This document shows, piece by piece, positions 1,774 through 19,158 of a DNA stretch of 64,000 nt (positions are counted from its first letter, which is position 1; each line of letters begins with the position of its first letter). The notes beneath the pieces are model-generated. The model was not told where the DNA came from and did not search any database. It saw only the letters and a list, made by a program, of their open reading frames with translations. The position numbers were made by a program, and so were the translations under genes. The stretch comes from an uncultured Oscillibacter sp. (lineage in GTDB: Bacteria; Bacillota; Clostridia; Oscillospirales; Oscillospiraceae): the NCBI GenBank assembly GCA_910579435.1, contig CAJTVF010000001.1, positions 34,412-98,411 of the forward strand, in the 5' to 3' direction.

Positions 1774-2808
1774 CTAAGATCTGTCGGCCTGTCCGACTGT
1801 ACGGCAGGTGGCTCGCTGGATGAGCGTAGGAGTGATCAGCTTCCGGGTGAATTCCCCCTGGTCCCCGCTGCCGATGAGCTCCAGCATCAGCCGGACGGCG
1901 GCCCGGGCCAGCCGGGGCGTGTTCTGAGAGAGGGTAGTCAGCCGGATATTGGGCAGCGCGGCGTACTCGATGCCGTCGAATCCCAGGATGGACAGGCGGC
2001 CCGGGATGGCGATGCCCAGCTCGTCCGCCACTTGGATGAAGCCCAGGGCCACCGCGTCAGACACGGCGAAAACGGCTGTTTGAGAGAAGGGGCCGGAAAG
2101 GAATCCCCGGGCCAGCTGGCAGCCGCTCTCAATGGTGGAGGAGGACAAGGGATTGGGGACCGTCTCCACCGACATGCCCAGTTCCGTGGCGGCGGAGAGG
2201 AAACCTTGATGGCGCAGGACGTGGGTGGCGCTGCCGCTCCGATAGCCTAGGTAGGCCACGTTCCTGTGACCCAAGCCATGGAGATACTCCGCCGCCATGC
2301 GGCCTCCGGCGTAATTGTCTGTGCTCACCGTATTGGCCCGGAGGGGAGAATCCTCCGGCGCACAGGCCCCAAGGAGAATGCAGGGGACCTTCCCCATGGA
2401 GCGGCGGGCCAAGTCGTAAGCCCCGTCTCCGGCGCTGCTGAGGAGGATGCCGTCCACCCGCTGGCTGTAAAGGAAGTCAAATAGATCCTCAAGCCGGCCG
2501 TCTTCCCGGCGGCTGGAGCAGAACATCAGCTGATAGCCCGCCTCCTGGGCGCAGAGCTCGATGTTCAGGGCCAGGGCGGCGTGAAAGGGGTTGGCCATGT
2601 CGGGGACCACCAGCCCCAGCAGCTTGGAGCGGCTGGAGCTGAGGCTTCTGGCCAGCAGGTTGGCGCGGTAGCCCTGCTCCCGGCAAACCCGCAGGACCTT
2701 GTCCCGGGTCTCGCTGTGGATCTCCGGGGCGTCGTTGAGGGCCCGGGAAACCGTGGTGACGGAGACGCCGGCTAGGCGGGCGATGTCTTTGATGGTGACG
2801 CGTTGCAT
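1774..2808 (-). CDS. LacI-family transcriptional regulator
   Basis: N-terminal TIKDIARLAGVSVTTVSRALN HTH plus periplasmic-binding-like domain; divergent from the ABC operon. Confidence 0.95.
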   Translation of the reverse strand: MQRVTIKDIARLAGVSVTTVSRALNDAPEIHSETRDKVLRVCREQGYRANLLARSLSSSRSKLLGLVVPDMANPFHAALALNIELCAQEAGYQLMFCSSRREDGRLEDLFDFLYSQRVDGILLSSAGDGAYDLARRSMGKVPCILLGACAPEDSPLRANTVSTDNYAGGRMAAEYLHGLGHRNVAYLGYRSGSATHVLRHQGFLSAATELGMSVETVPNPLSSSTIESGCQLARGFLSGPFSQTAVFAVSDAVALGFIQVADELGIAIPGRLSILGFDGIEYAALPNIRLTTLSQNTPRLARAAVRLMLELIGSGDQGEFTRKLITPTLIQRATCRTVGQADRS

Positions 2809-2846
2809 GGGCCTTCCTCCTTTTCCCAGAAGAAACCAGACGGCTT

Positions 2847-2860
2847 TGGTAACGTTTGCA
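2847..2860. promoter_or_regulatory. LacI-type operator 1
   Basis: TGGTAACGTTTGCA fits the TGNAANCGNTTNCA pattern; ~40 bp upstream of the lacI start. Confidence 0.6.
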
Positions 2861-3094
2861 GAAATTCTCCCAAGACCAAGACAGAGAATGGGCGGCGGTG
2901 AGGAAAACGGAGGATACAGTGGCCGTCCGCCTAGAAAAGTTTTAACGATTTGTAAAATGCGTTGCTTTTTTCAGGAAGAAATAGCGACTTCTGACACTCT
3001 TATTATAACAGAGAATGCATAGCCTGGATATTGTGCAAACCTGATAAAAAAGAGCGGGCGTTGTGCATACATCTGTGGAAAATTTAAAACCGTC

Positions 3095-3151
3095 TTGACA
3101 AACTTCGGAAGTAAATGGTATTCTAACATCAGAAAACCGGAAACGTTTGCA
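3095..3151 (+). promoter_or_regulatory. Sigma-A promoter of ABC operon with downstream LacI-type operator 2
   Basis: TTGACA (3095-3100), 18 nt, TG-n-TATTCT (3119-3124); operator CGGAAACGTTTGCA at 3138-3151. Confidence 0.65.
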
Positions 3152-3205
3152 TAAATTATGCCGGCGTTTCCTGACTCAAGGAGAAAGAGAGGTTGCCTGT
3201 CTGAG

Positions 3206-5071
3206 ATGAAACCGAACGAGCAGAGTTATTCCAAGTCCAGGCGGCTGAAGAACCAGATCAAAGAAGTGGTGACGAATCCCTACAATGTCATTGTGGTCAT
3301 CGCCATCGTCCTTCTGACATATCTGATCGTCTTCCCGCTGGTGGATATGCTGTCCACCACCTTCCACCTGGCCCAGCGGGACCTGCGGTCCGTGCCCGGC
3401 GGGGTGGCCGGAGAATTCACCTTCTATTATTGGCAGCGGCTGCTGGCCAGCGACCTGACCATGAAGCTGCTGGTGCAGCCCCTGGTAAACTCCCTGATCA
3501 TCGGTGCCGGCGTGTCTATCTGCGCCATTGCTCTGGGCTCCGTCCTGGCGTGGCTGATGGTCCGGTCGGATCTGCCTTTCAAGCCCTTCTTCTCCCTGGC
3601 GGTGATCATCCCCTATATGATCCCCTCTTGGGTGAAGTCCCAGGCGTGGCTGTCCATGTTCAAGACGCCCCGGGTCGGCGGCGCGCCGGGCTTCGTGGCC
3701 TCCATCATGCTCAATATGGGCATGTCCCCGGATGCCATCGAGACGGTGCTGGGCCCCATCGCCTACGGTGAAATTGCCGTCATCATCGTGTTGAGCCTGC
3801 ATTACTACGCCTATACATACCTCCTGGTCTCTGCGGCGCTGAACTCCATCAACTCCGAGCTGGAGGAGATGGGCGAGATTCAGGGCGCCAGCAAGAGCCT
3901 GATCCTCCGGCGGATCACCCTGCCCTTGGTGCTGCCCGCCATGCTGTCGGCGGTCATCTTGACCTTCTCCAAGGCCATCGGCACCTTCGGTACCATCAAC
4001 TATCTGGGCTCCCCGGTAAACTTCCGCACCCTGTCCAGCGAGCTCTACTCCAATAACCGTTCCCAGAACACCCAGACGGCCTTCGCCATGGCGATTCTGA
4101 TGATTTGCATAGCCTCTCTGTCCGTCTTTATCAACCAGAAGCTCATTGGGTCCCGGAAGTCCTACGCCACCATCGGCGGCAAGGGCGGACGGTCCACTCC
4201 CATTGGCTTGGGCGGCTGGAAACCCATCATCACCCTGATCCTCATTGTGTTCTTCATCGTGGGCATCATTATGCCGGTGATCATCCTGATCGTGGAGAGC
4301 TGTATGCTGAAGGAGGGCACCTATTCCCTGGAGAATTTCACCTTGTATTACTGGATAGGCGAGGGGAACCCGAACATCATGGAGGGCGTCCCGGGGATCT
4401 TTAAGAACAGCAACTTCAAGCTGTCCCTGTGGAACTCCCTGAAGCTGACCCTGGTCAACGGCGTCTTTGGCACCATCTTCGGCCAGATGCTGGGCTATAT
4501 CTGCGCCAAGGGCCGGGGAACCTTCCATGGCCGCCTGGTAGAGCAGCTGGTCTTTATCCCCTACCTGATCCCCTCCGTGGCCTTCGGCGGCATCTACCTG
4601 AGCATGTTCTCCAAACCTCAGACGGTCTTTGGCGTGACCTTGGTCCCGGCGCTGTACGGCACCTTCGCCCTGCTGACGCTGACCAGCGTCGTGAAGCATC
4701 TGCCCTTCGCCTCCCGGGCGGGCACTTCCAACATGATGCAGATCAGCGGCGAGCTGGAGGAGGCCGCCACCATTGAGGGCGCGGGCTTCTTCAAGCGGTT
4801 CATTAAGATCGTGTTCCCCCTGTCCAAGGGCGGATTCATTTCCGGCTTCATGCTGATCTTCGTCTCCATCATGAAGGAGCTGGACCTGATCATCCTGATC
4901 ATGACCCCGACGACCTCCACGCTGCCCTATCTCGCGTTCCAGTACCAGAACCAGAACTGCCCCCAGGCGTCCGACTGCGTGGCCATCGTGATGTTCTCCA
5001 TCGTGTTCCTGGTATACGCGCTGGCCAATATCTTCGGAGACGCCGACCTCGCCAAGAGCATGGCGGGCTGA
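3206..5071 (+). CDS. ABC transporter permease, fused double domain (FbpB/AfuB-like)
   Basis: Two EAA-like loops (ELEEMGEIQGAS, ELEEAATIEGAG) and many TM segments; start approximate. Confidence 0.9.
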   Translation: MKPNEQSYSKSRRLKNQIKEVVTNPYNVIVVIAIVLLTYLIVFPLVDMLSTTFHLAQRDLRSVPGGVAGEFTFYYWQRLLASDLTMKLLVQPLVNSLIIGAGVSICAIALGSVLAWLMVRSDLPFKPFFSLAVIIPYMIPSWVKSQAWLSMFKTPRVGGAPGFVASIMLNMGMSPDAIETVLGPIAYGEIAVIIVLSLHYYAYTYLLVSAALNSINSELEEMGEIQGASKSLILRRITLPLVLPAMLSAVILTFSKAIGTFGTINYLGSPVNFRTLSSELYSNNRSQNTQTAFAMAILMICIASLSVFINQKLIGSRKSYATIGGKGGRSTPIGLGGWKPIITLILIVFFIVGIIMPVIILIVESCMLKEGTYSLENFTLYYWIGEGNPNIMEGVPGIFKNSNFKLSLWNSLKLTLVNGVFGTIFGQMLGYICAKGRGTFHGRLVEQLVFIPYLIPSVAFGGIYLSMFSKPQTVFGVTLVPALYGTFALLTLTSVVKHLPFASRAGTSNMMQISGELEEAATIEGAGFFKRFIKIVFPLSKGGFISGFMLIFVSIMKELDLIILIMTPTTSTLPYLAFQYQNQNCPQASDCVAIVMFSIVFLVYALANIFGDADLAKSMAG

Positions 5072-5092
5072 GAGAAAGGAGACGAAACGATC

Positions 5093-6214
5093 ATGAGCAA
5101 AATTGTTCTGACGAATGTTGATAAATTCTATGGCAAGAACCATGTCTTGAAAAATTTGAACCTGACCATCGAAGACGGGGACTTCATGACCCTGCTGGGT
5201 CCCTCCGGCTGCGGCAAGACCACCACTCTCCGCGTGGTCTCCGGCCTGGAGAAGCCCCAGAGCGGCTTTATCCACATGGACGGCCAGGAGATCGTCAACG
5301 CGGCGGAGGCCAAATTCGCCCCGCCCAGCAAGCGAAACCTGAATCTGGTCTTCCAGTCCTACGCCCTGTGGCCCCACATGACGGTGTTCGACAACGTGTC
5401 CTTTGGATTGAAGATCCGCAAGGAGCCCGCCGACGTCATTGAGAAGAAGGTCGCCTCCGCCCTGGAGCGGATGCAGATCGGCGAGTACGCCAAGCGCTAT
5501 CCCACCGAGCTCTCCGGCGGCCAGCAGCAGCGTGTGGCCATTGCCCGGGCCATCGTGTCCGAGCCCCGGCTGCTCCTCCTGGACGAGCCGCTTTCCAACC
5601 TGGACGCCAAGCTCCGGGTGGACATGCGGTCCGAGCTCAAGCGTCTCCACCATGAGACGGGCACCACCATCATCTACGTTACCCACGACCAGGTGGAGGC
5701 CCTGACCATGTCTACCCGCATCGCCCTCTACCGCAAGGGCGAGCTGGTCCAGGTGGCTCCGCCCCTGGAGCTGTACGACAACCCCTGCAACCTGTACACG
5801 GCGGACTTCATAGGAAACCCCAGCATCAATTTCATCAAGGGCACGGCCCGGGTTGAGGCGTCTGGGATGACCGTGGACAGCGCCATGGGCCAGCAGACTT
5901 ATGACCGGGCTGATATGACTCCCGATGCCCCCACGAGCGGCACGGTGGAAGTGACCCTGGGCCTCCGGCCCGAGCAGGTGACCATTTCCAAGACCCAGGA
6001 CGACGAGCACCAGGTGGAAGCTCACGTTTACTCCGGTATGCCCGCCGGGTCCGAGACCCTGGTCACCGTCCGGGTGGGGAAGGACCTGGTGACGGTGAAG
6101 GAGCTGGGCTCCACCCACTACGGCAGCGACGAAAAAGTGTTCCTGGGCTTCAATCCCAAGAAGATCAACGTCTTCGAGACCGCCAGTGAAAACCTCATCA
6201 AGTACTGCGTCTGA
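5093..6214 (+). CDS. ABC transporter ATP-binding protein (PotA/FbpC/MalK-like, C-terminal TOBE)
   Basis: Walker A GPSGCGKTT, signature LSGGQQQR, Walker B LLLLDEP. Confidence 0.95.
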   Translation: MSKIVLTNVDKFYGKNHVLKNLNLTIEDGDFMTLLGPSGCGKTTTLRVVSGLEKPQSGFIHMDGQEIVNAAEAKFAPPSKRNLNLVFQSYALWPHMTVFDNVSFGLKIRKEPADVIEKKVASALERMQIGEYAKRYPTELSGGQQQRVAIARAIVSEPRLLLLDEPLSNLDAKLRVDMRSELKRLHHETGTTIIYVTHDQVEALTMSTRIALYRKGELVQVAPPLELYDNPCNLYTADFIGNPSINFIKGTARVEASGMTVDSAMGQQTYDRADMTPDAPTSGTVEVTLGLRPEQVTISKTQDDEHQVEAHVYSGMPAGSETLVTVRVGKDLVTVKELGSTHYGSDEKVFLGFNPKKINVFETASENLIKYCV

Positions 6215-6286
6215 GCTGTGACCCCGCGGCAAAGGCCGCTTATACCCGAGGAATAAAACGGAAGATTTTTAAGGAGGAAAAGAATC

Positions 6287-7540
6287 ATGTTGAAGCGCAA
6301 AAATATCCTGGCCTGTCTGCTGGCCCTGGTGATGCTGCTGAGCCTGGCCGCCTGTGGAGGCGGCGGCGGAGACAGCCAGCCCAGCGGCGGAGACTCCCAG
6401 CCCTCCGGCGATGCCGGGCAGGCCGCTCCGGCGGACCCCGCCTCCGGAGACCTGACGGAGTGGGAGCAGAGTTCCGGCATCTACAACACCGATGAGACCG
6501 ACGAGGAGCTGTATCAGAAGGCCCTGGAAGAGGGCGCCACGGTGACCCTGTATTCCATCTCCTCCCGCTGCACCAAAGTGGCCGACGCCTTTATGGAGAA
6601 GTATCCCGGCCTGGAGTGCGTTCCCTTTGACATCTCCACCAACGACCTGCTGGAGAAGGTGACCAAGGAGTACGAGGCGGGAGCCCCCACGGCGGACGTG
6701 GTCCACATCAAGGACCAGGACGGCTCCATGTACCTGGAGTATGTAGCGAATAAGATTTTCTATAACTTCAAGCCCGCCGACATTTTCTCTCACATCGATC
6801 CCATCTACACCGAGACCCAGACCCCGCTGTACATTGAGCTGACCCAGCTTTTCTACAACACCGAAGCCTATCCCGACGGTTCCCCCATCACCAACCTCTG
6901 GCAGCTCACCGAGCCCCAGTGGAAGGGCAAGATCATGATGCAGAACCCTCTGGACAACTTGGCCTGGGGCTCCTGGATCGCCGGCTTCTGCGTGGGCGAG
7001 GAGCCCCAGCGCTTGGCCGACGCTTATAAAAACCTCTACGGTGAGGAGCTGACCCTCTCCGACGGCTGCGAGAACGCGGGCTATGAGTTCCTCAAGCGGC
7101 TCCATGCCAACGAGCCCATCTTCACCGCTTCCTCCGACGAAATCGCCGAGTCCGTGGGCACCCCCGGCCAGTCCGATCCCCCGGTGGGCTTCTGCGCCTC
7201 CTCCAAGCTCCGTAAGGCGGAGGAGAACGGCTGGCTGTTCGCTCCCGTGAACCTGGAGCCCGACACCGGCATCCCCGCCGTGAACACCCTGTATATTGTG
7301 GAAGGCAGCGAGCATCCCTCCGCCGCCAAGCTCCTGGTCCGCTTCATGATGGGCGGCGTGGACGGCGATATCGGCGGCTACAAGCCCTTCAACACCCTGG
7401 GCGGCTGGCCCGTCCGGGACGACCTGGCTCCCGCCGAGGGCTCCACTCCCTTCGCCGAAATCAACGTGGCTCCTTTCGACGCTACCGAGATCTATTACAA
7501 CTACAACACCGTCCGCGATTTCTGGCAGCAGCTGGGCTAA
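6287..7540 (+). CDS. ABC substrate-binding lipoprotein (AfuA/FbpA-like class)
   Basis: Lipobox LLSLAAC, G/S-rich linker, acidic binding domain with W.DL..P.WKGKI-like segment (WQLTEPQWKGKI). Confidence 0.85.
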   Translation: MLKRKNILACLLALVMLLSLAACGGGGGDSQPSGGDSQPSGDAGQAAPADPASGDLTEWEQSSGIYNTDETDEELYQKALEEGATVTLYSISSRCTKVADAFMEKYPGLECVPFDISTNDLLEKVTKEYEAGAPTADVVHIKDQDGSMYLEYVANKIFYNFKPADIFSHIDPIYTETQTPLYIELTQLFYNTEAYPDGSPITNLWQLTEPQWKGKIMMQNPLDNLAWGSWIAGFCVGEEPQRLADAYKNLYGEELTLSDGCENAGYEFLKRLHANEPIFTASSDEIAESVGTPGQSDPPVGFCASSKLRKAEENGWLFAPVNLEPDTGIPAVNTLYIVEGSEHPSAAKLLVRFMMGGVDGDIGGYKPFNTLGGWPVRDDLAPAEGSTPFAEINVAPFDATEIYYNYNTVRDFWQQLG

Positions 7541-7586
7541 GCGGAGGGAGAAAAACCATCCTGTTTTGATTTGAGCACCGCAAGAA

Positions 7587-7619
7587 GCGGCGGGCGGATG
7601 TCTGCCCGCCGCTTCTTCT
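7587..7619 (+). terminator. Rho-independent terminator after ABC operon
   Basis: GCGGCGGGCGGA/TCTGCCCGCCGC stem followed by TTCTT. Confidence 0.6.
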
Positions 7620-7638
7620 GCCAAGCTTGCTTTTATCA

Positions 7639-7667
7639 TTGCGTTTCACCCGCCCGGTGTTTATAAT
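7639..7667 (+). promoter_or_regulatory. Sigma-A promoter for second cargo operon
   Basis: TTGCGT, 17 nt, TATAAT. Confidence 0.6.
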
Positions 7668-7729
7668 GCAAAGGGAGAGTCTGCGTATTTTGACCCGAGC
7701 TGATCGCCCGGCTCTGGAGAGGAGCGCCT

Positions 7730-8434
7730 ATGAGTCTTTTTATCGACAAGCACAACCGGAGAAAAAGCCCCTTAGCCCTGGCAGCTTTCGGTGCGGCCCT
7801 ACTGTATTTTTGTGTGTTCGGGTTCCTTTACGCCGTCTTGGCGGAGCCCCTTTACGGCCATGTGCGGCTGGGCAGTCCGGCGGCTACCACGGCCGCCCAT
7901 AGTGTGATAATCGCTCTGGTGGGAACAGCGGCTTGCTGCCTGCTTTTCCTGCTGGAAGATAAACGGGTGGCGCCTCTGGGCTTTGCCGGATTGACAGTAG
8001 TTCTGGGGATGTTTTACGCCGCCGCCTTGATGCTGGAAGGAGAGGCGCGGAGCCTGATGATCCAGTTGATCACTATGTACGGCCTGTCCCCGGTCCTGAT
8101 AGGCAACGCCGTGGCTTGGCCGATCTATTTCAAGATGAAAAAGGCTGCTCCCACGCCAAAGCGCAGGAAGACCGTTCAGCAGGAGCTGATGGAGGCGGCG
8201 GCCCGAGAAGCCGAGAAGCAGGAGCGGAAACAAGCGCGGCAGGTGAAAAAGGGCCGGATTCCGGCCCCGCCGGAGGCGGCGGAGCCCGATCCTCCCCCCA
8301 AGCCGCCGGAGTCCCCCTCTCCGGAGGAGGCCCTGTTCGGCCCGGAGCCCGGGCCCAGCGCGTTCCGCTCTGAGGAAGAGGAAGCCATGCTTCTCTACAT
8401 GGACGACGATGATGATGAAACAGGCGACGATTAA
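7730..8434 (+). CDS. Hypothetical membrane protein (about 4 TM helices, Pro/acidic C-tail)
   Basis: Hydrophobic N-terminal two-thirds, then a charged coiled segment, Pro-rich stretch and DDDDDETGDD end; RBS GGAGGAG. Confidence 0.7.
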   Translation: MSLFIDKHNRRKSPLALAAFGAALLYFCVFGFLYAVLAEPLYGHVRLGSPAATTAAHSVIIALVGTAACCLLFLLEDKRVAPLGFAGLTVVLGMFYAAALMLEGEARSLMIQLITMYGLSPVLIGNAVAWPIYFKMKKAAPTPKRRKTVQQELMEAAAREAEKQERKQARQVKKGRIPAPPEAAEPDPPPKPPESPSPEEALFGPEPGPSAFRSEEEEAMLLYMDDDDDETGDD

Positions 8435-9434
8435 GGATGTGGCGGCCATGGCGGGAGTCAGCGCCGCCACGGTGTCCCGGGCCCTGGACGACCGCCCGGA
8501 GATCAGCGCCGAGACCAAGGAAAAGGTCCGGGAGGCCTGCCGCTGCCTGGGCTATGTGCCCAACGCCGCCGCCCGGGGCCTGACGGGCCGCAAGACCCAC
8601 GTCATCGGCATGGTGGTGCCCGACGTGTCCAACCCCTATTTCTCCGGCATGGCCACGGCCATCGAGGCCCGGGCCGCTCAGGAGGGCTACCGGGTCCTGC
8701 TGAGCAATTCCATGCGCAGCGAGGAGCAGGAGATTCGGGCCATCGACCAGTTTCTGGCCAGGCAGATCGACGGGCTGCTGGTGGCGGCCATCTCGCCCCA
8801 GTCCCAGGCCCGCCACGGGGCGCTGCTCCGGGGACTGCCCTGCGTGTATCTGGGGGTGAACCACAGCGAGGCGTGCAGCTATGTGATGACGGACAACACC
8901 GTGGGAGCCTATGAGGCCACCCGGTATCTGCTGGACCTGGGCCACCGGGACATCCTCTTCTTCGGCGGGCGGGAGACCTCCCGCACCCGGGAGCTCCGGG
9001 TCGAGGGCTTCCACCGGGCTATGGCGGAGGAGGGCCTGACGGGCCGGGAGCTGGCGGCTGTGGGAGATGTGCGCCAGCTGCGCCAGTGGAGCTATGAGCG
9101 GGCCCTGGAGCTCTTCGAGTCCGGGCCGCCGCCGGACGCCATCTTCGCCTTTTCGGACATTACGGCCCTGAAGATTATGGAGGCGGCGGAGGAGCGGGGC
9201 GTCCGCATCCCGGAGGACGTGTCCCTGCTGGGCTACGACAACATCTCCTTCGCGGCCCTGCCCCGCATCGACCTGACCACCGTCTCCCAGCGGAAATTCC
9301 GGGCGGGGGAGATCGCGGTAACCCGGCTGCTGGAGCAGATCCGGGGGAAAAAGGAACAGACGGCGGACCTGCTCCAGCCGGAGCTGATTGTGCGGTCCAC
9401 CTGCATTAAAAAAGAAGGAGGCGGGTCACTATGA
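8409..9434 (+). CDS. LacI-family transcriptional regulator (second copy)
   Basis: ATIKDVAAMAGVSAATVSRAL HTH; start is one of ATG 8409/8412/8415 and overlaps the upstream gene. Confidence 0.95.
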   Translation: MMMKQATIKDVAAMAGVSAATVSRALDDRPEISAETKEKVREACRCLGYVPNAAARGLTGRKTHVIGMVVPDVSNPYFSGMATAIEARAAQEGYRVLLSNSMRSEEQEIRAIDQFLARQIDGLLVAAISPQSQARHGALLRGLPCVYLGVNHSEACSYVMTDNTVGAYEATRYLLDLGHRDILFFGGRETSRTRELRVEGFHRAMAEEGLTGRELAAVGDVRQLRQWSYERALELFESGPPPDAIFAFSDITALKIMEAAEERGVRIPEDVSLLGYDNISFAALPRIDLTTVSQRKFRAGEIAVTRLLEQIRGKKEQTADLLQPELIVRSTCIKKEGGGSL

Positions 9435-10465
9435 GGGGACTGCCCAACGAGGAGCGGCAGCGCTTGGGAGCTCTGCTGGAACATGCTTCCCAGGAGGAAG
9501 TCATGGCGAGGATTCCCCAGTTTTCCCAGGCGGAGGTTCACAATCTGGCCCCCGTCTCGCCCCAGGCCCGGCTGGACCTGGGCGTGCTGGTGTTCAACAT
9601 GGAGCGGGGCGTGTGCCTGGAGGAGCTGGGGGACTTCCTGGAGGACTGCCCGGCGGTCCGGCCCTTTGACGTGATCCTCGCCAACGAGCTGGACGACGGC
9701 TGCGTCCGCTCCGGGGGAAAGAACACCACCCTGGAGCTGGCGGAGCGGCTGGGGATGAACGCGGTGTTCGGCCTGGAGTTCATCGAGCTGGTGAACGGGG
9801 AGGACCCCAAGGGCTTCCACGGCAACGCCATTTTCTCCCGCTGGCCCGTTAAGCGGGCCAAGGTGGTCCGCCTGCCGGAGCAGTACAACTGGTACTTTGA
9901 CCGCCAGAGGCGCATCGGCGGGCGGCTGGCTATCCTGGCGGAGCTGGACGCGGCGGGAAAATCCATAGGCGTGGGGACCATCCATCTGGAGAACCGGACC
10001 CACGGGCCGGGCCGCCGGGCCCAGCTGGAGGCCGTGCTGAGGGAGGCGGAGGCCATGTTCCCCGGCATGCCCGTCGTCCTGGGCGGCGACCTGAACACCA
10101 ACACCTTCGACGGCCGGGACAAGGACGCCATCCAGGCCGTGGCGGGGAGCGCGGAGCTCCAGCGCCGCTGCCTGGAGGATGTGGCCGCCTGGGAGGAGTG
10201 CCTCCCGGCGGCGGAGGCGGCGGGTTACCGCCTCCTGCCGGAGCGGGCCGTGCCCACCCGGCGCAAGCCCCTCCCCGGTGGAGGACACCTGGACCTTCGG
10301 CTGGACTGGCTGCTGGTCCGGGGCCTGGAGGCGAAGGAGAGCCGCACCATCTCCACCCGGAAGGCGGACTGCGGCTTCGCCCGGCCCGGCAGCGCCCTGG
10401 CGGCGTTCACCGGGGAGGAGCTTTCCGATCACAACGCGGTCTGGGCGTCCTGCGCCCTGGAGTGA
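9431..10465 (+). CDS. Endonuclease/exonuclease/phosphatase (EEP) family phosphoesterase, cytoplasmic
   Basis: Motifs FN(M), ANELD, GNAIFSR, HLE, GGDLNT, LDWLL, SDH; no signal peptide. Confidence 0.85.
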   Translation: MRGLPNEERQRLGALLEHASQEEVMARIPQFSQAEVHNLAPVSPQARLDLGVLVFNMERGVCLEELGDFLEDCPAVRPFDVILANELDDGCVRSGGKNTTLELAERLGMNAVFGLEFIELVNGEDPKGFHGNAIFSRWPVKRAKVVRLPEQYNWYFDRQRRIGGRLAILAELDAAGKSIGVGTIHLENRTHGPGRRAQLEAVLREAEAMFPGMPVVLGGDLNTNTFDGRDKDAIQAVAGSAELQRRCLEDVAAWEECLPAAEAAGYRLLPERAVPTRRKPLPGGGHLDLRLDWLLVRGLEAKESRTISTRKADCGFARPGSALAAFTGEELSDHNAVWASCALE

Positions 10466-10479
10466 AAAGGAGAAATCAC

Positions 10480-11262
10480 ATGCTGAACACCGTATTATTT
10501 GATATGGGCGGGACCCTGGAGGACATTTGGAACAACGAGGAGACCCTGGCCGCGGTGATGGAAAAGCTCCAGGCCATGCTCCGCGCGGCGGGGCTGGAGC
10601 CCGGCTGCGGGCCGGAGGCGTTCCGGGAAAAGGTCCTGGCGGGACTGAGAGCCTACAAGAGCTGGAGCGAGTCCGTGTGGCTGGAGAAGAAGCCGGAGGA
10701 AATCTGGCCGGACTTCTATCTGAAGGCCTTTGACTTCGACCGGGAGAAGCTGATCCCCATCACCGAGGACCTGGCCAACATGTGGGAGCTGACCTATTTC
10801 CACCGGGAGCTCCGGCCCGGGGTCCGGGAGATGCTGGAGGAGCTGGAGCGCCGGGGCTACAAGCTGGGCGTGGTGTCCAACAACGCCTCCCTCTACAACG
10901 TGTTCAACGTGCTGGAGGACTACGGCATCCGGCATTTCATGCGGGACGTGACGGTATCCAGCGTCACGGGCTACCGCAAGCCCCACCCGGAGATTTTCCG
11001 GATTTCCTTCCGGCAGATGCAGGTGAGGGCGGAGGACTGCGTCTATGTGGGGGACACGATCTCCCGGGACATCATCGGCGCCAAGCGGGCGGGCTTCGCC
11101 AAAGCGGTGCAGATCGGCTCCCATCTCTCCGCCGAGAAGGACGCGGCGGTGAAAGACGCGGCGGAGAAGCCGGACGCGGTCATTTCGGACATCCGGGAGC
11201 TAACGGCGTGGCTGGACGAAATCAACCCCGCCATGGCGCCCAAGGCGGCGCGGGAGGTGTGA
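10480..11262 (+). CDS. HAD-superfamily hydrolase (subfamily IA)
   Basis: Motif I FDMGGTL, motif II VSN, motif III RKPHPEIF, motif IV VGDTISRDIIGA; ATG 10480 with RBS AAGGAG. Confidence 0.9.
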   Translation: MLNTVLFDMGGTLEDIWNNEETLAAVMEKLQAMLRAAGLEPGCGPEAFREKVLAGLRAYKSWSESVWLEKKPEEIWPDFYLKAFDFDREKLIPITEDLANMWELTYFHRELRPGVREMLEELERRGYKLGVVSNNASLYNVFNVLEDYGIRHFMRDVTVSSVTGYRKPHPEIFRISFRQMQVRAEDCVYVGDTISRDIIGAKRAGFAKAVQIGSHLSAEKDAAVKDAAEKPDAVISDIRELTAWLDEINPAMAPKAAREV

Positions 11263-11265
11263 GCG

Positions 11266-12156
11266 ATGAAAAAACAGTATGACGTTCTGGTGATTGGCCC
11301 CGTGTCCCTGGACCACAACATCGACTACCAGGGCAACGAGCGGAAAGAAGTGGGCGGGGCCGTGGTGGCCTCCGGCTTCGCGGCGGCGGGGAGCGGAAAC
11401 AAAACCGCCCTCTTCACCAAGCTGAACCCCGCCGACGCCGACGTTGAGGCCCGTTTCGCCGGGTCCGGCGCGGACCTGTACTGGAAGCCCTCCAGGGCCA
11501 CCTGCTCCATCCGGAACCAGTACTTCACCGCCGACAAGGAGAAGCGCTCCTGCACCTCCATGGGGGTCTGCGATCCCTTCCGGTTCGACGAGCTGCCGGA
11601 CGTGGAGGCGAAGATTTACCACTTCGCCGGGCTGGTCTACGGGGACTTCGACGGCCCCCTCTTCGCCGAGGCGGCGAAGCACGGCAAGGTGGCCGTGGAC
11701 GTCCAGTGCCTCCTGCGGCACGTGGAGCCGGACAAGACCATGGCCTTCCATGACTGGGCGGAGAAGCGGGAGTACCTGCCCTGCATCGACTACCTGAAGA
11801 CCGACGCCGCCGAGGCGGAAATTCTCACGGGCCTGACGGACCGGGCGGAGGCGGCGAAGCTGCTCCACAGCTGGGGAGCGAAAGAGGTCCTGATTACCCA
11901 CAACACGGAGGTGCTGGCCTACGGCGGGGACAAGATTTACACCTGCCCCATCAAGGCCCGGAACCTCTCCGGCCGGACGGGCAGGGGGGACACCACCTTC
12001 GCCGGGTATATCACGGAGCGCCAGCGGGCGGGCATTGAGGAGGCCCTGCTGTACTGCACGGCCCTGGTGTCCCTGAAAATGGAGACCCCCGGCCCCTTCC
12101 AGGGGAGCCGGGAGGATGTGCTGGCGTATATCCGTGCGTTCTACCAGGGGGCGTAA
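11266..12156 (+). CDS. PfkB/ribokinase-family kinase, probable PPi-dependent myo-inositol kinase (TM0415-like)
   Basis: GRTGRGDT replaces the usual GAGD anion-hole motif; DVQCLLR, YLKTD and SLKMETPGP segments match my recollection of Thermotoga TM0415. Confidence 0.8.
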   Translation: MKKQYDVLVIGPVSLDHNIDYQGNERKEVGGAVVASGFAAAGSGNKTALFTKLNPADADVEARFAGSGADLYWKPSRATCSIRNQYFTADKEKRSCTSMGVCDPFRFDELPDVEAKIYHFAGLVYGDFDGPLFAEAAKHGKVAVDVQCLLRHVEPDKTMAFHDWAEKREYLPCIDYLKTDAAEAEILTGLTDRAEAAKLLHSWGAKEVLITHNTEVLAYGGDKIYTCPIKARNLSGRTGRGDTTFAGYITERQRAGIEEALLYCTALVSLKMETPGPFQGSREDVLAYIRAFYQGA

Positions 12157-12167
12157 TAGAGAAGGAC

Positions 12168-12213
12168 AGAGGCGGCGTGTTCCTTGACGCGGGGGACACG
12201 CCGCCTTGTTTTT
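12168..12213 (+). terminator. Terminator closing the cargo operon
   Basis: GGCGGCGTGT/ACACGCCGCC stem followed by TTGTTTTT. Confidence 0.6.
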
Positions 12214-12406
12214 GCCGGTTTACTTGGAACATTTTATAATATTGCATATTGGCAAATAAAGAAATAGTTCCTTAAGTGGATCCCGGTATCCATAGTGGAA
12301 CATACCATAAACGGTAAAAATGCAAAAGCGAAAAACTATTTTGTCTTAGTGCCTTATAAGCTTGAGCTTCGGTGTGTTCTAATAAAAATTGATATAAGGA
12401 TTTTTA

Positions 12407-13834
12407 TTAGGATGATCGCTTGCGCCGATTCGGCATACTTTCTTCCAGCCATTCTGTGAACGCATCCAGGGTCAAGTTTCCACTCAAGCAATCATCTCGT
12501 TTTTGAACGGCCTCATATTGCCACTGCTTGAATTTGTCTCGCTTGAGGCTTCCGGCCTGGACCCTGGCAAAGTAGCGTTTGTAGTATTTCTGATAGACGC
12601 TCAGAGGATTCCTGCCGTCGTTGTCTTTCAGCTTTTCCAGATATGTTTCCTGTGCCGCAAGCTGCTGGCAGGTGCGGTGCTCTCCATCCGCGATGCGGTC
12701 ACAGTAGGCCCCGTGGTAGTTGCCTTTGACGATGAAATATTTCCCGCAGCGTCTGCACTTTTGAAACTCCAGTCCGGCCTCTAAGATTTTTGTGAATTCC
12801 AGATACAGCATGTCGCGCAGGTTGCTGCAGGTATAGCTTGAGGAAATGAAGCAGGGAATTTTGTAACAGAGCTCCAGCTCATACTCCGGCAGACCGTACT
12901 CCTCACAAAACGCTTTCTGCTCAGGGGACAGGATGATCTCTTGGTCAACGTCAATTTTATCAAGGTCAGTACCAAATGGCATTTGCGTGCCACGGGGATC
13001 GCAGGAATCCGGCTGAAAGGTCTCCTGACGCTTATGGCAGGAGGGAACGCCTTTGATTTTACACCAAAGGCTGTAGCGTTCCGACGGATACAACCGGCCA
13101 AGGACTTCTGGGCGGTAGCTTTTGTCCAGACAGAACTCGATGAGCTCCAGGAACTCTGTCTGCAAGAACAAGAGATAATGTCGGTAATACTCCAACGCTT
13201 TTTCTGTCCTGCGTGTGAACTGTGGAGGAAAGGTGGCAGTGTAAATGGAAGAGTAGGAGACCTCGCTCAGAGTAGGGAAGACCTCTGCGTACAACTCGTA
13301 GAGTTGGATAACGCTCTCCTCTATACGATGAATCTTTTTCGGATCGTCAGTGGTCTGGGCCAGTTCCTGATACGTTGCGGCACAATGATCAAAAGCGGAC
13401 TTGAAGTCAGCGTAGCAAAAGTTCAAGACGCCCTCGCCCAGCGGCACGACAACCGTCGTGCCGCTGAGCGCGTTAATCCTCTGCTCTGCTGCGTCGTAAG
13501 GGTAGAGCGGGTCTGGCGGCTGCACCTCAAAAATGCTTCCAAACTTCTCTCGGATTCTTTGAAGCTCCGCACGCCAGAACTCCACCTCCGCTTCGGTGAC
13601 CTCCCGTTGATAAGTCTTGGGAATGGGATACTCCAAATCCTCGTACAGATCAAACATGCATTCGAACTCGTAAACTGGGCTGACGTTGATGTACAGCCTT
13701 TTCTCTTTCTCCAAATAAGAAACGCTATTCTCAAAGAAGGAGGGGGAGAGGTCCTCGCAGCCGCTCCACTGTGATCGGTAATTTGCGTGTTCAGAATTCT
13801 GGTATTCGGACAGATCAAAGTTGGGACGAACCAT
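12407..13834 (-). CDS. DUF6076-like protein with C-terminal Cys cluster (IME-associated)
   Basis: C-terminal LEFTKILE...KCRRCGKYF...YCDR...TC...YKRYFARV pattern; RBS AGGAGG. Confidence 0.65.
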   Translation of the reverse strand: MVRPNFDLSEYQNSEHANYRSQWSGCEDLSPSFFENSVSYLEKEKRLYINVSPVYEFECMFDLYEDLEYPIPKTYQREVTEAEVEFWRAELQRIREKFGSIFEVQPPDPLYPYDAAEQRINALSGTTVVVPLGEGVLNFCYADFKSAFDHCAATYQELAQTTDDPKKIHRIEESVIQLYELYAEVFPTLSEVSYSSIYTATFPPQFTRRTEKALEYYRHYLLFLQTEFLELIEFCLDKSYRPEVLGRLYPSERYSLWCKIKGVPSCHKRQETFQPDSCDPRGTQMPFGTDLDKIDVDQEIILSPEQKAFCEEYGLPEYELELCYKIPCFISSSYTCSNLRDMLYLEFTKILEAGLEFQKCRRCGKYFIVKGNYHGAYCDRIADGEHRTCQQLAAQETYLEKLKDNDGRNPLSVYQKYYKRYFARVQAGSLKRDKFKQWQYEAVQKRDDCLSGNLTLDAFTEWLEESMPNRRKRSS

Positions 13835-13919
13835 GAGAGATGCCGCCTCCTTTTTGAAAATCAGGTTTCGTTCAAAAATCGAGAATCTATATCACGCCAG
13901 AAAATATTATACAGAACTC

Positions 13920-13948
13920 TTGAGCCCGTGTCAAATCTCTGCTATCCT
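13920..13948 (+). promoter_or_regulatory. Promoter of HTH-xis-mob transcript
   Basis: TTGAGC, 17 nt, extended -10 TG-c-TATCCT. Confidence 0.45.
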
Positions 13949-13972
13949 GTTCGCAGGACAGGAGGAGATTGG

Positions 13973-14296
13973 ATGCGGTATTTTAGCAAACAGCTTTTTC
14001 AAATCGACGCGGAGATTTTTTATCACAATCTCACCGCGCACCAACTGGCGGTGTACAGTTATCTGGTATTCTGCTCCGGCAGCCGGAACGCCTGCCAATT
14101 GAACGTTCGGACCATCGCCACCGCCTGCGGCTGTTCGGAATCCAGCGTCAGGCGCGCACTGCACGGATTGAGGGAACGTGGTTTTATTGATGTGAAGGGT
14201 GCTGTGCAAAAGCTAAGGAGCGGCGGTTATCGGCGGACCTGCAACCGCTACTATCTGCTGGACCGGAGCGAGTGGAGACCGCCGAATGAAGCGTAG
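13973..14296 (+). CDS. Small winged-HTH protein (HTH_36/replication-organiser-like)
   Basis: LTAHQLAVYSYL...TIATACGCSESSVRRALHGLRERGFI; ATG 13973 with RBS AGGAGG. Confidence 0.7.
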   Translation: MRYFSKQLFQIDAEIFYHNLTAHQLAVYSYLVFCSGSRNACQLNVRTIATACGCSESSVRRALHGLRERGFIDVKGAVQKLRSGGYRRTCNRYYLLDRSEWRPPNEA

Positions 14297-14352
14297 TGCC
14301 GTTCCAAATAGAGCGAGGAAATGTATGAATAAAAAGGCGTCGGAGGGTGACA

Positions 14353-14583
14353 ATGAAAGATTCTGTGTACAAGAGCTACGATGAGCTGCCGCTGTTCCTC
14401 AACGCAAAAACAGTGGCAAAGGTGCTGGGCGTCTCTCTGTCCAGCGGTTATGAGTTAATGCACCAGCAGGACTTCCCAACGCTGAAAATAGGGAACCGCA
14501 TTGTGGTTCCCAAAGAGAGGTTTGTCCAGTGGGTGGAGCGAAACACGAGTGGTGGTGACGACGATGGAAGTCTCGAAATTTGA
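14353..14583 (+). CDS. Excisionase-like HTH_17 protein
   Basis: YDELPLFLNAKTVAKVLGVS...YELM...FP.LKIG.RIVVPKE.F..W pattern; RBS GGAGG. Confidence 0.85.
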   Translation: MKDSVYKSYDELPLFLNAKTVAKVLGVSLSSGYELMHQQDFPTLKIGNRIVVPKERFVQWVERNTSGGDDDGSLEI

Positions 14584-14920
14584 GACTGGTAAAGATAAGA
14601 GCAAGATGCCCCGTGTGACGACTTGTGAGCCCTCGTGTGCGATTTTCTATCGAGGGCAGGGCAGACCTCCGGGGAAGCAGTCTGCACCAAAATGCAACGA
14701 GTTACGAGGGATGAAAGAAAAGCAGGAGAAAGCCCTGGCGCTTTCCGCGCGCCAGGGCGGGTACTTCTGCCCGCAGTGCGGGCAGTTGCGGGGGCAAAGA
14801 CTGACGCTTTTTTGACGGGGGAGCAGACCGATTGACGCTGATATTCCCAAGGGTCCCTCTAAGCCCTGCCGTTGAAGGCTTTGGCATGACGCTAATTTGG
14901 AATAAGGAGGATATTTCAGC

Positions 14921-15343
14921 ATGAATGAAGATAAAAAGCGGCACACGGTCTGGCTCACTCCGGATGCGTGGAGTCAGGTGGAAAGCAGCTATACAAAAGA
15001 CAACTGCACCACGAAAAATGAGTACATCGAGAAGGCAATCCGGTTCTACACTGGCTACCTAAATACGCAAAACGCCGCCAGCTATCTCCCGCGTGTCCTT
15101 GCGGATGTGCTGGAGGGCAAGCTGGGAGCATTAGGCACCCGGATCGGCAAGTTGCTGTTCAAGCTGGTCGTGGAGCAGGACATGACCTCGAATATCACCG
15201 CGGCAGTGAATCAGATTCCCTTGGATGATCTGGAACGTCTGCGGGCACGCTGCATACGGGACGCCAAAAAGACCAACGGGGTCATCAATCTCGAGGATGC
15301 CGTCAGGTACCAGAATGGATGGAGTGATCAATGGTCAGGCTGA
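14921..15343 (+). CDS. Putative relaxosome accessory (ribbon-helix-helix) protein
   Basis: N-terminal RHTVWL beta-strand plus NEYIEKAIRFY helix; overlaps the relaxase start. Confidence 0.6.
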   Translation: MNEDKKRHTVWLTPDAWSQVESSYTKDNCTTKNEYIEKAIRFYTGYLNTQNAASYLPRVLADVLEGKLGALGTRIGKLLFKLVVEQDMTSNITAAVNQIPLDDLERLRARCIRDAKKTNGVINLEDAVRYQNGWSDQWSG

Positions 15344-19020: not shown

Positions 19021-19024
19021 CCGA

Positions 19025-19101
19025 TGGTGGAGACTACTGGACTCGAACCAGTGGCCTCATGCGTGTGAAGCATGCGCTCTAACCAGCTGAGCTAAGCCTC
19101 C
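19025..19101 (-). tRNA. tRNA-Val (CAC)
   Basis: 77-nt cloverleaf GGAGGCTTAGCTCAG...CATGC-TTCACAC-GCATG...GGTTCGAGTCC...CTCCACCA. Confidence 0.97.
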
Positions 19102-19158
19102 AGATACGTATTTGATTTTCTGCCCATAAGACGCCGTGCATCACGACGTCTTATGGGG

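Follow-up and report, generated by a model that had tools for sequence, protein, structure and literature searches.

An integrative mobilizable element of 18.2 kb, inserted in tRNA-Val of a mouse-gut Oscillibacter, carries as its cargo an expressed operon that joins an ABC importer to an EEP-superfamily phosphoesterase, a HAD hydrolase and a TM0415-type kinase. On balance, we favor the reading that this element-borne, LacI-controlled operon serves to take up an organophosphate that contains inositol and to process it in the cytoplasm. An inositol-organophosphate pathway of this kind is apparently undescribed. The stretch analyzed (the window) is 64 kb long, and the element occupies its left part. 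A perfect 46-bp direct repeat marks the ends: the left copy (attL, 846–891) is identical to positions 19024–19069 (attR), and the attR feature (19024–19101, reverse strand) includes the overlap with the 3′ end of tRNA-Val(cac) (19025–19101). Beyond these repeats, the sequence of other contigs departs from that of the window. The element opens on the left with paired genes, assigned by Pfam, for DUF2442 (PF10387; 1030–1320) and DUF4160 (PF13711; 1336–1665) proteins, both on the reverse strand. A gene for a DUF6076 protein (12407–13834, reverse strand) begins the lower-GC backbone, where a MobL-family relaxase (15331–17247) and a tyrosine integrase that adjoins attR (17682–18839) are encoded on the forward strand. 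Together, the att repeats in tRNA-Val, the integrase and the relaxase mark the element as mobile, as the preliminary description had proposed. That description also noted the absence of iol catabolic genes, and none are found on the element or elsewhere in the 64-kb window.

The region from 1774 to 12156 is composed of a reverse-strand gene for LacI-family regulator 1 (1774–2808) and a divergent, single 9-kb operon encoding, in order, a permease, ATPase, solute-binding protein, 234-residue membrane protein, second LacI-family regulator, EEP phosphoesterase, HAD hydrolase and kinase, all on the forward strand. The regulator within the operon (LacI-2, 8409–9434) is 38% identical to LacI-1. The genes from permease through kinase are enclosed by one promoter and one terminator. 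The promoter is of the sigma-70 type (3095–3124; TTGACA-18-(TG)TATTCT), with 10 of 12 matches and an extended −10 box, and the intrinsic terminator (12169–12207) has an 18-pair stem followed by a T-run. Two candidate LacI operators flank the promoter on the forward strand: a half-palindrome close to the LacI-1 start (GTAACGTTTGCA, 2849–2860) and a second candidate directly downstream of the −10 box (GAAACGTTTGCA, 3140–3151). The same motif recurs in sister clusters, within their promoter regions, and the LacI-controlled operon is presumably inducible by its substrate. A hairpin with a 17-bp stem located 3′ of the binding-protein gene (7582–7617, forward strand) may stabilize the transcript or act as a partial terminator. 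Contigs of four mouse-gut metatranscriptome runs cover 3.0–11.9 kb, and coverage of the mobility genes is near zero.

All gene types named in the preliminary description (the LacI pair, ABC importer, EEP, HAD and kinase) were found where it had placed them; its list omitted the membrane protein positioned between the transporter and LacI-2. This protein (7730–8434) has four hydrophobic, probably membrane-spanning segments, identified by eye, and a Pro-rich, acidic tail. It matches no Pfam family, and its N-terminal ~145 residues are kept in diverged clusters, with 49% identity in locus L134 and 31% in L149.

The importer contains a fused two-domain BPD_transp_1 permease (3158–5071; gene callers favor a start at 3206, giving 621 residues), an ATPase with a C-terminal TOBE domain (5093–6214) and a lipoprotein solute-binding protein with the lipobox LAAC (6287–7540). 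The earlier assignment to the AfuABC class holds at the level of structure, where the binding protein belongs to the Fe3+/AfuA/PotD class, and does not extend to sequence: phmmer detects no similarity to AfuA, and the shared structural class is the only relationship. Sister loci encode a PhnU2/AfuB-like permease, to which this one is 25% identical over 489 residues. Those sister clusters, arranged LacI–LacI–EEP (61–64%)–AfuA–AfuB–ATPase, in some cases followed by the kinase, encode a genuine homologue of AfuA (it matches PDB 4r72 at E = 1e-55), which supports the proposed import of an organophosphate. The nearest structures to the binding protein itself are IbpS, the Mg-citrate protein MctA and ferric-binding proteins, with weak scores and from a model with a pLDDT of 58. 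Such neighbors would suit an importer of metal chelates (Fe3+, Mg-citrate or Fe-citrate) lying beside the enzymes by accident. We consider this extremely improbable: confidence in the structural model is low, the operon has a single promoter and a single terminator, and the transporter genes remain with those for EEP, HAD and kinase at 33–78% identity, including in other gene orders.

The cytoplasmic EEP-superfamily phosphoesterase (PF03372; 9431–10465) retains a complete catalytic set (N56, E86, H185, D220, N222, D292, D333 and H334). In structural comparison it comes closest to Nocturnin, TDP2 and CNOT6L, with TM-scores of about 0.5; inositol 5-phosphatases are missing among the top 50 matches, and the enzyme has no specific relative. 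The HAD-IA hydrolase (10480–11262) has an atypical motif I, F-D-M-G-G-T, that is missing the Asp+2 general acid, so the earlier label of ‘HAD phosphatase’ is secure as to the gene and uncertain as to a plain phosphatase role. It weakly resembles YjjG-type nucleotidases.

The final gene encodes a PfkB/ribokinase-family kinase of the TM0415 type (11266–12156) with the motif RTGRGD. The preliminary description had called it TM0415-like, and the match to TM0415 structures 1vk4 and 5ysp (E = 4e-38; 33% identity) and the preserved acceptor pocket bear this out. Residues D11, I76, N78, L116, Q141 and R145 are shared exactly, and all four of the hydrogen-bonding acceptor residues are conserved. Four of the five PPi-donor residues are also kept (K171, R229, R232 and M266, with F221 replaced by Ile), supporting the predicted PPi dependence. 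Kinases in diverged clusters (48–56% identity) have the same acceptor and donor residues, either identical or conservatively replaced. Within the pocket, Ser89 is replaced by Cys, a change that could alter regiochemistry.

TM0415 (IolK) of Thermotoga maritima is a PPi-dependent myo-inositol 1-kinase of the ribokinase family, and its product is 1D-Ins(1)P rather than Ins(3)P (Nagata et al. 2018, PMC5931981). Its Km for myo-inositol is 12 mM, and its discoverers doubted that this is the true acceptor; nevertheless, when 14 acceptors including ribose, glucose, fructose, inosine, adenosine and cytidine were tried, TM0415 and its active homologues used only myo-inositol (PMC5931981). The regiochemistry leaves the previously proposed phosphorylation at C3 unsupported. 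It also bears on the larger scheme in which an imported inositol phosphate would lose all its phosphate and then gain one from PPi at C3, so that phosphatase and kinase together serve as an ATP-free positional isomerase and provide Ins3P for inositol-lipid synthesis. The presence of hydrolase and kinase in one operon, the PPi-donor signature and a shift in regiochemistry that the Ser89 replacement could bring would fit this scheme, to which we give very little credence. In addition to the Ins(1)P product of TM0415, the HAD is without the general acid required for ordinary phosphomonoesters, no PIP-synthase or lipid gene was seen among the 173 loci, and the inositol-pathway genes found beside kinases in other genomes are all catabolic (IolG, IolE, IolD and MIOX).

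The module is not peculiar to the 18.2-kb element. Species-representative genomes have the kinase orthogroup at 80 loci, almost all of them in Oscillospiraceae, and metagenome contigs with 39–63% GC carry the gene set as well. In diverged clusters, EEP is 34–56% and the kinase 48–56% identical to the window proteins. An EEP gene, one to four HAD genes and homologous permease, ATPase and binding-protein genes occur together in shuffled order in L092, L102, L127, L134, L148, L149 and L150; the kinase is present in L092, L102, L134, L148, L149 and L150, and none is shown in L127. The comparison of homologous neighborhoods suggested earlier thus finds EEP, HAD and importer kept, with the kinase in most clusters. 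Recurrence of the same gene set in other orders at 34–56% EEP identity, together with the single promoter and terminator, indicates that the genes are not clustered by chance.

Neighborhoods of the kinase add to both the phosphodiester and the inositol connections. Four phosphodiesterase superfamilies adjoin the orthogroup (EEP, ComEC-like MBL, GDPD and Menorin), making a phosphodiester substrate plausible; 42 of the 80 loci have an MBL (30), EEP (8) or GDPD (6) neighbor. The MBL protein is ComEC-nuclease-like. In six Oscillospiraceae loci, two of which (L025 and L032) also have a window-type cluster, the kinase gene is immediately next to a UgpQ-like GDPD gene. A gene for Menorin, a PLC-like phosphodiesterase, ends where a TM0415-clade kinase gene begins, at its start codon. 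CUT1 ABC systems precede the kinase in about 19 loci, and kinase, AfuA-type ABC and HAD genes occur together in a Thermotogae MAG. In Thermotoga sp. KOL6 the transporters adjacent to the TM0415-type kinase locus are of the CUT2 and CUT1 sugar types, which leaves unsupported the inositol-phosphate transporter that the preliminary description placed in the T. maritima locus. In L143, an EEP–kinase pair without the rest of the module lies with an IolB-like gene within 10 kb of IolE, IolD and IolG genes (all three above NCBIfam cut-offs), and its EEP gene is preceded by the operator motif of the window operon. TM0415-clade kinases adjoin genes for IolG-like dehydrogenases or MIOX in several phyla. 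With the preserved acceptor pocket, these loci support the inositol link.

These observations also weigh on a rather unlikely alternative, salvage of a non-inositol organophosphate (a hexose or pentose phosphate, nucleotide or oligonucleotide-derived phosphodiester) with a sugar or nucleoside as the kinase acceptor. Hexose phosphates or pyridoxal phosphate are ligands of AfuA-type proteins, the closest folds to EEP are nucleases and a nucleotide phosphatase, and the ComEC-like MBL partner, the weak YjjG resemblance of the HAD and the questioned acceptor of TM0415 point the same way. Against it stand the exclusive use of myo-inositol in the acceptor panel, the conserved pocket and the iol and MIOX genes that flank kinases in several phyla. 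Other neighbors suggest that the main role is acquisition of phosphorus, and perhaps magnesium, more than use of carbon, in which the imported organophosphate is stripped, its phosphate stored as polyphosphate and the PPi/Pi balance buffered by the kinase. PPX and PPK1 genes lie 3′ of cluster variants at no fewer than 8 loci. A pair of MgtC genes stands ahead of the kinase at about 31 loci, as it does in the diverged L092, L149 and L158, and single clusters have several phosphoesterases (up to four HADs, a PHP protein and a purple acid phosphatase). We hold this reading improbable as a separate explanation: the repressors are of LacI type with a sugar-type operator, the cluster genes include no Pho-type regulator, and the PPX–PPK neighborhood may be mere synteny in one lineage. 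It is, moreover, compatible with import of an inositol organophosphate rather than exclusive of it.

For the inositol-organophosphate pathway, we envisage uptake of a negatively charged inositol ester by the ABC importer; glycerophosphoinositol or a similar phosphodiester head group, and lower inositol phosphates, are the likeliest candidates. EEP would cut a phosphoester or phosphodiester bond of this compound, and the HAD may remove or transfer a further, probably activated, phosphate. With PPi/Pi in place of ATP, the kinase would convert free myo-inositol and inositol 1-phosphate into each other, and genes elsewhere in the genome would encode the inositol metabolism that receives the product. 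Several observations count against this reading: the 12 mM Km of TM0415 and the doubts of its discoverers, an EEP with no specific relative, the iron- or Mg-citrate-binding structures nearest to the poorly modeled binding protein, the missing Asp+2 of the HAD, the lack of iol genes on the element and in the window, and the many kinase loci whose only neighbors are MgtC genes. The overall proposal of the preliminary description is thus supported in its organophosphate import, inositol link, PPi donor and mobility, and unsupported in its C3 regiochemistry, its positional isomerase and its plain HAD phosphatase.

The logic of the operon, an importer followed by a cytoplasmic phosphodiesterase, matches that of UgpBAEC–UgpQ of E. 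coli, in which glycerophosphodiesters are taken up by an ABC importer and hydrolyzed by a cytoplasmic phosphodiesterase under Pho regulation. The window operon differs in having EEP instead of GDPD, LacI instead of Pho control, and an additional HAD and predicted PPi-dependent kinase. PusCD loci of plant-associated Bacteroidota, which use phosphatidylinositol and glycerophosphoinositol via an inositol 1-phosphate intermediate (bioRxiv 10.64898/2026.09.03.749221), similarly combine dedicated transport with PLC- or GDPD-like phosphodiesterases for phosphoinositide head groups. They are, however, Gram-negative systems of phosphate limitation, with TonB-dependent outer-membrane transport and periplasmic enzymes, and have no PPi kinase, EEP or window-type ABC importer. 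AfuABC (AfuA, 4R72–4R75; related binding proteins P5PA and VcA0625) shares the single fused permease, TOBE ATPase and class of binding protein, and its true AfuA homologue occurs in sister EEP/kinase clusters, although the window binding protein has no AfuA similarity at the phmmer level and the permease is only distantly AfuB-like. Classical iol operons (IolG, IolE, IolD and IolB) are missing from the element and the window, whereas in L143 one of them encloses the EEP–kinase pair and the shared operator motif. The window kinase departs from TM0415 in its low overall identity, the F221→I and S89→C replacements, an activity that is predicted from sequence, and its location on a mobile element without iol genes but with EEP, an atypical HAD and a fused-permease importer. 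The two have in common their fold and family, the four hydrogen-bonding acceptor residues, the RXGRGD motif, K171 and M266, and TM0415, like relatives of the window kinase, lies in an inositol gene cluster.

The operon consists of eight genes arranged in a tight array on the plus strand (3158/3206–12156) and divergent from a LacI-family regulator gene (LacI-1; 1774–2808, minus strand), as defined by an ORF listing of the window combined with Pfam and NCBIfam scans. The array encodes a fused two-domain ABC permease (3158/3206–5071), an ABC ATPase with a TOBE domain (5093–6214), a solute-binding lipoprotein (6287–7540), a 234-residue membrane protein without a Pfam family (7730–8434), a second LacI regulator (LacI-2; 8409–9434), an EEP-superfamily protein without a signal peptide (9431–10465), a HAD-IA hydrolase (10480–11262) and a PfkB-family kinase (11266–12156). 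A single strong sigma-70-type promoter (3095–3124) upstream of the permease and a strong intrinsic terminator (12169–12207) 3′ of the kinase gene indicate that the eight genes form a single operon. The motif GNAACGTTTGCA occurs twice in the divergent intergenic region, at 2849–2860 and, directly after the −10 box, at 3140–3151, with no further matches in the 64-kb window. This placement is as expected for a candidate LacI-type operator. Among the 173 genome and metagenome loci compared (designated by L-numbers), the motif is found in 19, always in the promoter region of the cluster where a gene map was at hand. None of the cluster genes has a Pfam or NCBIfam match to the iol catabolic operon (IolG, IolE, IolD, IolB, IolC), and tblastn searches of the window with IolG, IolE, IolD and IolB gave no match, bearing out the absence of iol genes noted in the preliminary description. 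That description also listed the genes correctly, but overlooked their actual order, the extra membrane protein and the atypical motif of the HAD protein.

The kinase is most closely related to TM0415, the PPi-dependent myo-inositol kinase of Thermotoga maritima; structures of this enzyme are matched at E = 4e-38, and other PfkB kinases at 1e-4 or worse. TM0415 uses PPi, not ATP or ADP, as phosphoryl donor, converts myo-inositol to 1D-Ins(1)P rather than Ins(3)P, and has a Km for inositol of 12 mM; its discoverers doubt that inositol is the true acceptor (Nagata et al. 2018, PMC5931981). The use of PPi is defined by Lys171, Phe221, Arg229, Arg232 and Met266 together with an RXGRGD motif (PMC5931981). 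Four of these five donor-site residues are identical in the window kinase (Lys178, Arg237, Arg240 and Met272 for Lys171, Arg229, Arg232 and Met266), and the fifth, Phe221, is replaced by Ile229, a conservative change to another bulky hydrophobic residue that is Ile, Leu or Val in diverged versions. The motif, with its catalytic aspartate, is present as R-T-G-R-G-D at residues 237–242. At the acceptor site, Asp11, Ile76, Asn78, Leu116, Gln141 and Arg145 of TM0415 are all conserved, and Ser89 is replaced by cysteine. Kinases from diverged clusters (48–56% identity) display the same residue pattern, except for that of L134, which has three conservative changes. The sequence thus gives good support to the prediction that the window kinase depends on PPi, in keeping with the donor proposed earlier, and that its acceptor resembles that of TM0415. 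Phosphorylation at C3, proposed at the same time, finds no such support; the product of TM0415 is Ins(1)P.

The EEP protein belongs to Pfam PF03372 (1e-7, above cut-off), whose superfamily is characterised by a four-layer alpha/beta sandwich. Its own family is small: of 1.8 billion representatives searched, only about 60 clusters fall below E = 1e-30. The metal-binding and catalytic set (Asn56, Glu86, His185, Asp220, Asn222, Asp292, Asp333 and His334) is invariant among 29 diverse members, and the AF2 model (pLDDT 80) matches EEP structures at E = 1e-11. We therefore predict a catalytically competent phosphoesterase or phosphodiesterase. The sequence alone has no match in the PDB, and the family profile and AF2 model recover only generic EEP relatives, none of which points to a particular subfamily; the best matches to the model are Nocturnin, TDP2, CNOT6L, an uncharacterised bacterial EEP and sphingomyelinases, with TM about 0.5. 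Bacterial sphingomyelinases (SMase C/ISC1-type) are matched at a profile E of 8e-5 and a Foldseek E of 7e-10, values that nucleases equal or better. An inositol polyphosphate 5-phosphatase was rejected, as INPP5-type enzymes are absent from the PDB profile matches and from the top 50 Foldseek matches.

The nearest solved relatives of the HAD protein are uncharacterised archaeal HADs. The protein retains the nucleophilic aspartate and motifs II (S-N), III (K) and IV (G-D-T-x-x-x-D) but departs from the complete DxDx(T/V) signature of HAD phosphatases. Motif I instead reads F-D-x-G-G-T, with glycine at the position of the Asp+2 general acid, in 11 of the 13 cluster-associated paralogues aligned, which include the window protein (10480–11262) and representatives from L092, L102, L127, L134, L149 and L167; the divergent paralogues L102_a and L127_b depart from it. 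Some clusters contain two to four DxGGT-type paralogues in tandem. Asp+2 is typical of HAD phosphomonoesterases; from what is known of HAD catalysis, its loss suggests that the leaving group of the substrate is a good one or that a different type of transfer takes place. The Pfam assignment to the HAD superfamily thus agrees with the preliminary description, whereas the missing Asp+2 makes its label of phosphatase uncertain.

The solute-binding protein contains a lipobox, its mature form spans residues ~24–417, and its sequence relatives in the PDB, IbpS (5e-7, profile) and MctA, are only weak ones. Its structural model is poor (pLDDT 58); Foldseek with this model places the protein in the FbpA/AfuA/PotD class, with IbpS and the Mg-citrate-binding MctA ranking first and the glucose-6-phosphate-binding VcA0625 and AfuA at ranks 18–28. 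The importer had been described as AfuABC-class, and the fused permease agrees with this; the binding protein is placed there by a low-confidence model and weak profile matches. An alternative in which the importer carries a metal chelate and has no connection with the enzymes is unlikely, being at odds with some of the evidence; an iron transporter of this sort was rejected.

An EEP-anchored scan of metagenomes, with distant EEPs as queries, recovered diverged clusters whose EEPs are 34–56% identical to that of the window and whose G+C content ranges from 39 to 63%. Seven of these (L092, L102, L127, L134, L148, L149 and L150) contain one to four DxGGT-type HADs together with homologous permease, ATPase and binding-protein genes, in differing order and orientation. 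The kinase gene lies within the sequenced stretch of all but L127, and several of the diverged clusters also encode the small membrane protein. Further phosphoesterases are found in some, including a PHP protein, a Kelch/purple acid phosphatase and an iPGM-like enzyme. The retention of this gene set through rearrangement is our strongest evidence that the operon genes would work together; chance juxtaposition was considered and rejected. In the 39% G+C cluster of L102, the gene between kinase and EEP (7267–9810) encodes an 847-residue protein that combines Kelch repeats with a purple acid phosphatase/metallophosphoesterase domain. EEP genes also occur without operon context in five human-gut contigs (L096, L099, L104, L133 and L135; 10001–11035, 62–63% identity to the window protein), that of L096 being flanked by a pyruvate-kinase-like gene and genes for ribosomal proteins L7/L12, L10 and L1.

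A second scan used an alignment of the window kinase and TM0415 against species-representative genomes; its matches were all at least 82% identical and came from Oscillospiraceae relatives, with no Thermotoga among them. In all, 80 loci encode the kinase at 82–96% identity, and almost every one belongs to Oscillospiraceae. Among the cultured carriers, Oscillospiraceae bacterium 38-13, Dysosmobacter sp. Sow4_B12 and O. valericigenes An890 have the kinase orthogroup but no window-type EEP–HAD cluster. Clustering of the neighbouring genes indicates that the kinase is constant and its partner modules are interchangeable. One module comprises LacI, a ComEC-like MBL hydrolase and TctCBA (8 loci), and another comprises LacI, a CUT1 ABC system, MBL and two MgtC genes followed by the kinase (about 18 loci). 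The window-type module is found in 5 loci, with a UgpQ-like GDPD gene after the kinase in L025 and L032. In a further module, two LacI genes and EEP are joined by an ABC system annotated as PhnS2/PhnU2; its binding protein is truly homologous to AfuA (E = 1e-55 to 4R72) and also matches P5PA and VcA0625. An MBL (30), EEP (8) or GDPD (6) gene lies within 9 kb of the kinase in 42 of the 80 loci and a transporter in 39, both lower bounds because many contigs are short.

About 31 Oscillospiraceae loci (L026, L028, L033, L040, L058 and about 26 others) carry genes for MgtC-family membrane proteins, singly or more commonly as a tandem pair, immediately before the kinase gene and in its orientation. 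The diverged clusters L092 (5479–6201) and L149 (8178–8891) have one MgtC gene next to the kinase, and a tandem pair follows the EEP–HAD genes in L158 (7424–8530). The association of MgtC with the kinase hints at a link to Mg2+/phosphate homeostasis. Genes for a Ppx-GppA exopolyphosphatase and polyphosphate kinase 1 directly follow cluster variants in L167 (9949–13278), in L142, L153 and L159 (at about 12648–15616), and in L161, L164, L115 and L139; the preceding variant is permease–ATPase–binding protein–membrane protein–HAD in L167 and LacI–LacI–EEP in the L142-type loci. Phosphorus scavenging tied to polyphosphate, a less likely reading, is suggested by these PPX–PPK1 and MgtC neighbours and conflicts with part of the evidence.

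Several loci connect the kinase to inositol metabolism. The 226-kb contig L143 contains an IolB-like gene, EEP (51% identity) and kinase (53%), and the next 10 kb hold IolE, IolD and IolG, all above NCBIfam equivalog cut-offs; here GNAACGTTTGCA lies between the IolB-like gene and EEP. Similar themes recur around TM0415-clade kinases in other phyla. In Thermotoga sp. KOL6, which we read as a proxy for the T. maritima TM0415 locus, ROK, ADH, creatininase-fold, IolG-like dehydrogenase and kinase genes adjoin CUT2 and CUT1 sugar ABC systems. In a Thermotogae MAG, genes for an AfuA-type ABC system and a HAD protein come after that of a TM0415-clade kinase. Two contigs combine an IolG-like dehydrogenase, an MFS transporter, a TM0415-clade kinase and MIOX, with MBL also present in one (L170). 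In another, IolG-like genes accompany a CUT1 ABC system, and a Menorin-family gene runs up to the start codon of a TM0415-clade kinase gene; Menorin/FAM151 falls within the PLC-like phosphodiesterase superfamily (PMC6965129). A non-inositol organophosphate as substrate is a less likely alternative and conflicts with part of the evidence.

The best-supported interpretation is a LacI-controlled pathway in which the ABC importer would take up an inositol-containing organophosphate, EEP would cleave it, and the kinase would interconvert inositol and Ins(1)P using PPi/Pi. The recurrence beside the kinase of four unrelated phosphodiesterase superfamilies (EEP, MBL, GDPD and Menorin) favours a phosphodiester substrate, for which glycerophosphoinositol is the obvious candidate. 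Lower inositol phosphates from phytate would also fit the multiple phosphatases in some clusters. The earlier idea of a positional isomerase supplying Ins(3)P for lipid synthesis finds no support. D-1, the position esterified in phosphatidylinositol, is also the one that bears the phosphate in the Ins(1)P that TM0415 makes or uses. A bolder proposal, which we consider unlikely, is that TM0415-type ‘kinases’ run in reverse in vivo, as inositol-1-phosphate:phosphate phosphotransferases in a route for phosphoinositide-derived head groups. The head groups would be imported and cleaved in PLC style by EEP, MBL, GDPD or Menorin to 1D-Ins(1)P, which would react with Pi to yield inositol and PPi; free inositol would pass to IolG or MIOX, and the phosphoester bond would be saved as PPi, which serves PPi-dependent fermenters as an energy currency. 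What makes the reverse reaction a serious possibility is that TM0415 is specific for Ins(1)P, has a very high Km for inositol and is placed in catabolic iol loci.

The operon is carried by an 18.2-kb integrative mobilizable element, and the mobility claimed for it earlier is supported. The EEP protein of the window recurs in 228 blocks of the assembly collection. Long contigs continue past the cluster with genes for DUF6076, HTH, MobL relaxase, DUF6809 and tyrosine integrase proteins and then diverge from one another. A perfect 46-bp direct repeat forms attL (846–891) and attR (19024–19069), the right copy corresponding to the 3′ end of tRNA-Val(cac). Alignments of the window with other contigs end near these repeats, and the flanks vary between contigs. 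The called genes of the element include those for the integrase and the MobL relaxase but no Pfam-recognisable T4SS gene for a conjugation channel. The element backbone has a G+C content of 50–55%, compared with 59–67% for the cargo. Cargo-like clusters (82–99% protein identity) without detectable element genes nearby are found in Oscillibacter, Dysosmobacter and uncultured Oscillospiraceae loci, so the operon may plausibly have been captured from a genome of this kind.

At its left end, inside attL, the element carries a DUF2442/DUF4160 gene pair (1030–1665). Three tRNA genes, for Val(cac), Glu(ttc) and Met(cat), are grouped at 19025–19430 on the minus strand, and a further copy of the att repeat, 61% similar, falls within tRNA-Met (19353–19398). 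In L001, an otherwise identical element departs from the window at about position 18312 (window 17742), the start of the integrase gene, and continues into HTH_3, D12-class methyltransferase and LysM/peptidase genes; this locus is either a variant without the integrase or an assembly junction. In L003, from one metagenome, small indels interrupt the kinase gene of an otherwise identical element (11836–12336; window ~11585–11927), and the kinase, with a called product of only 166 residues, is probably inactivated.

Contigs from four mouse-gut metatranscriptome runs (X1–X4) cover the operon from ~3.0 to 11.9 kb and hardly touch the mobility genes (12.5–18.9 kb), a contrast that argues for real transcription of the operon in vivo. 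Contig depth, a crude measure of expression, is 100–2700 over the ABC ATPase gene (window ~4938–6205) versus about 5–60 elsewhere in the operon. Differential expression of the ATPase gene was rejected; contigs in this peak contain many internal ‘skips’, and the peak represents chimeric contigs of conserved ABC ATPases from other organisms.

In the library that we searched, a single paper mentions TM0415 and no account of this gene cluster was found, in agreement with the pathway having been called undescribed, and the conserved module, here on a mobile element, is apparently new to the literature. The several phyla that a 2018 survey of PPi-kinase candidates names as examples do not include Firmicutes, and neither Oscillibacter nor Flavonifractor nor any name beginning with Clostridi occurs in its supplement (PMC5931981). 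TM0415 is the only known PPi-dependent enzyme of the ribokinase family, and its physiological role has been open since 2018. The role of TM0415-type enzymes is now testable: the comparative data place their genes, in a consistent pattern, after those for organophosphate importers and phosphodiesterases and next to those for inositol dehydrogenases, and suggest as candidate substrates glycerophosphoinositol, lower InsPn and the monophosphates Ins(1)P and Ins(2)P. If confirmed, the pathway would provide abundant gut Oscillospiraceae with a new route to breakdown products of dietary or host phosphoinositides and phytate, and would show that an inositol-organophosphate trait moves via an integrative mobilizable element. 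Were the reaction to run in reverse, the operon would spread an energy-conserving inositol-organophosphate route among gut Oscillospiraceae. PPi/Pi chemistry is relevant both to energy conservation in anaerobes and to ATP-free phosphorylation in biocatalysis. The parts of the operon all come from known families, and its logic of importer, phosphodiesterase and follow-up enzyme is that of Ugp-type systems. With AfuABC it shares the fused two-domain permease, and the sister clusters contain a true AfuA homologue.
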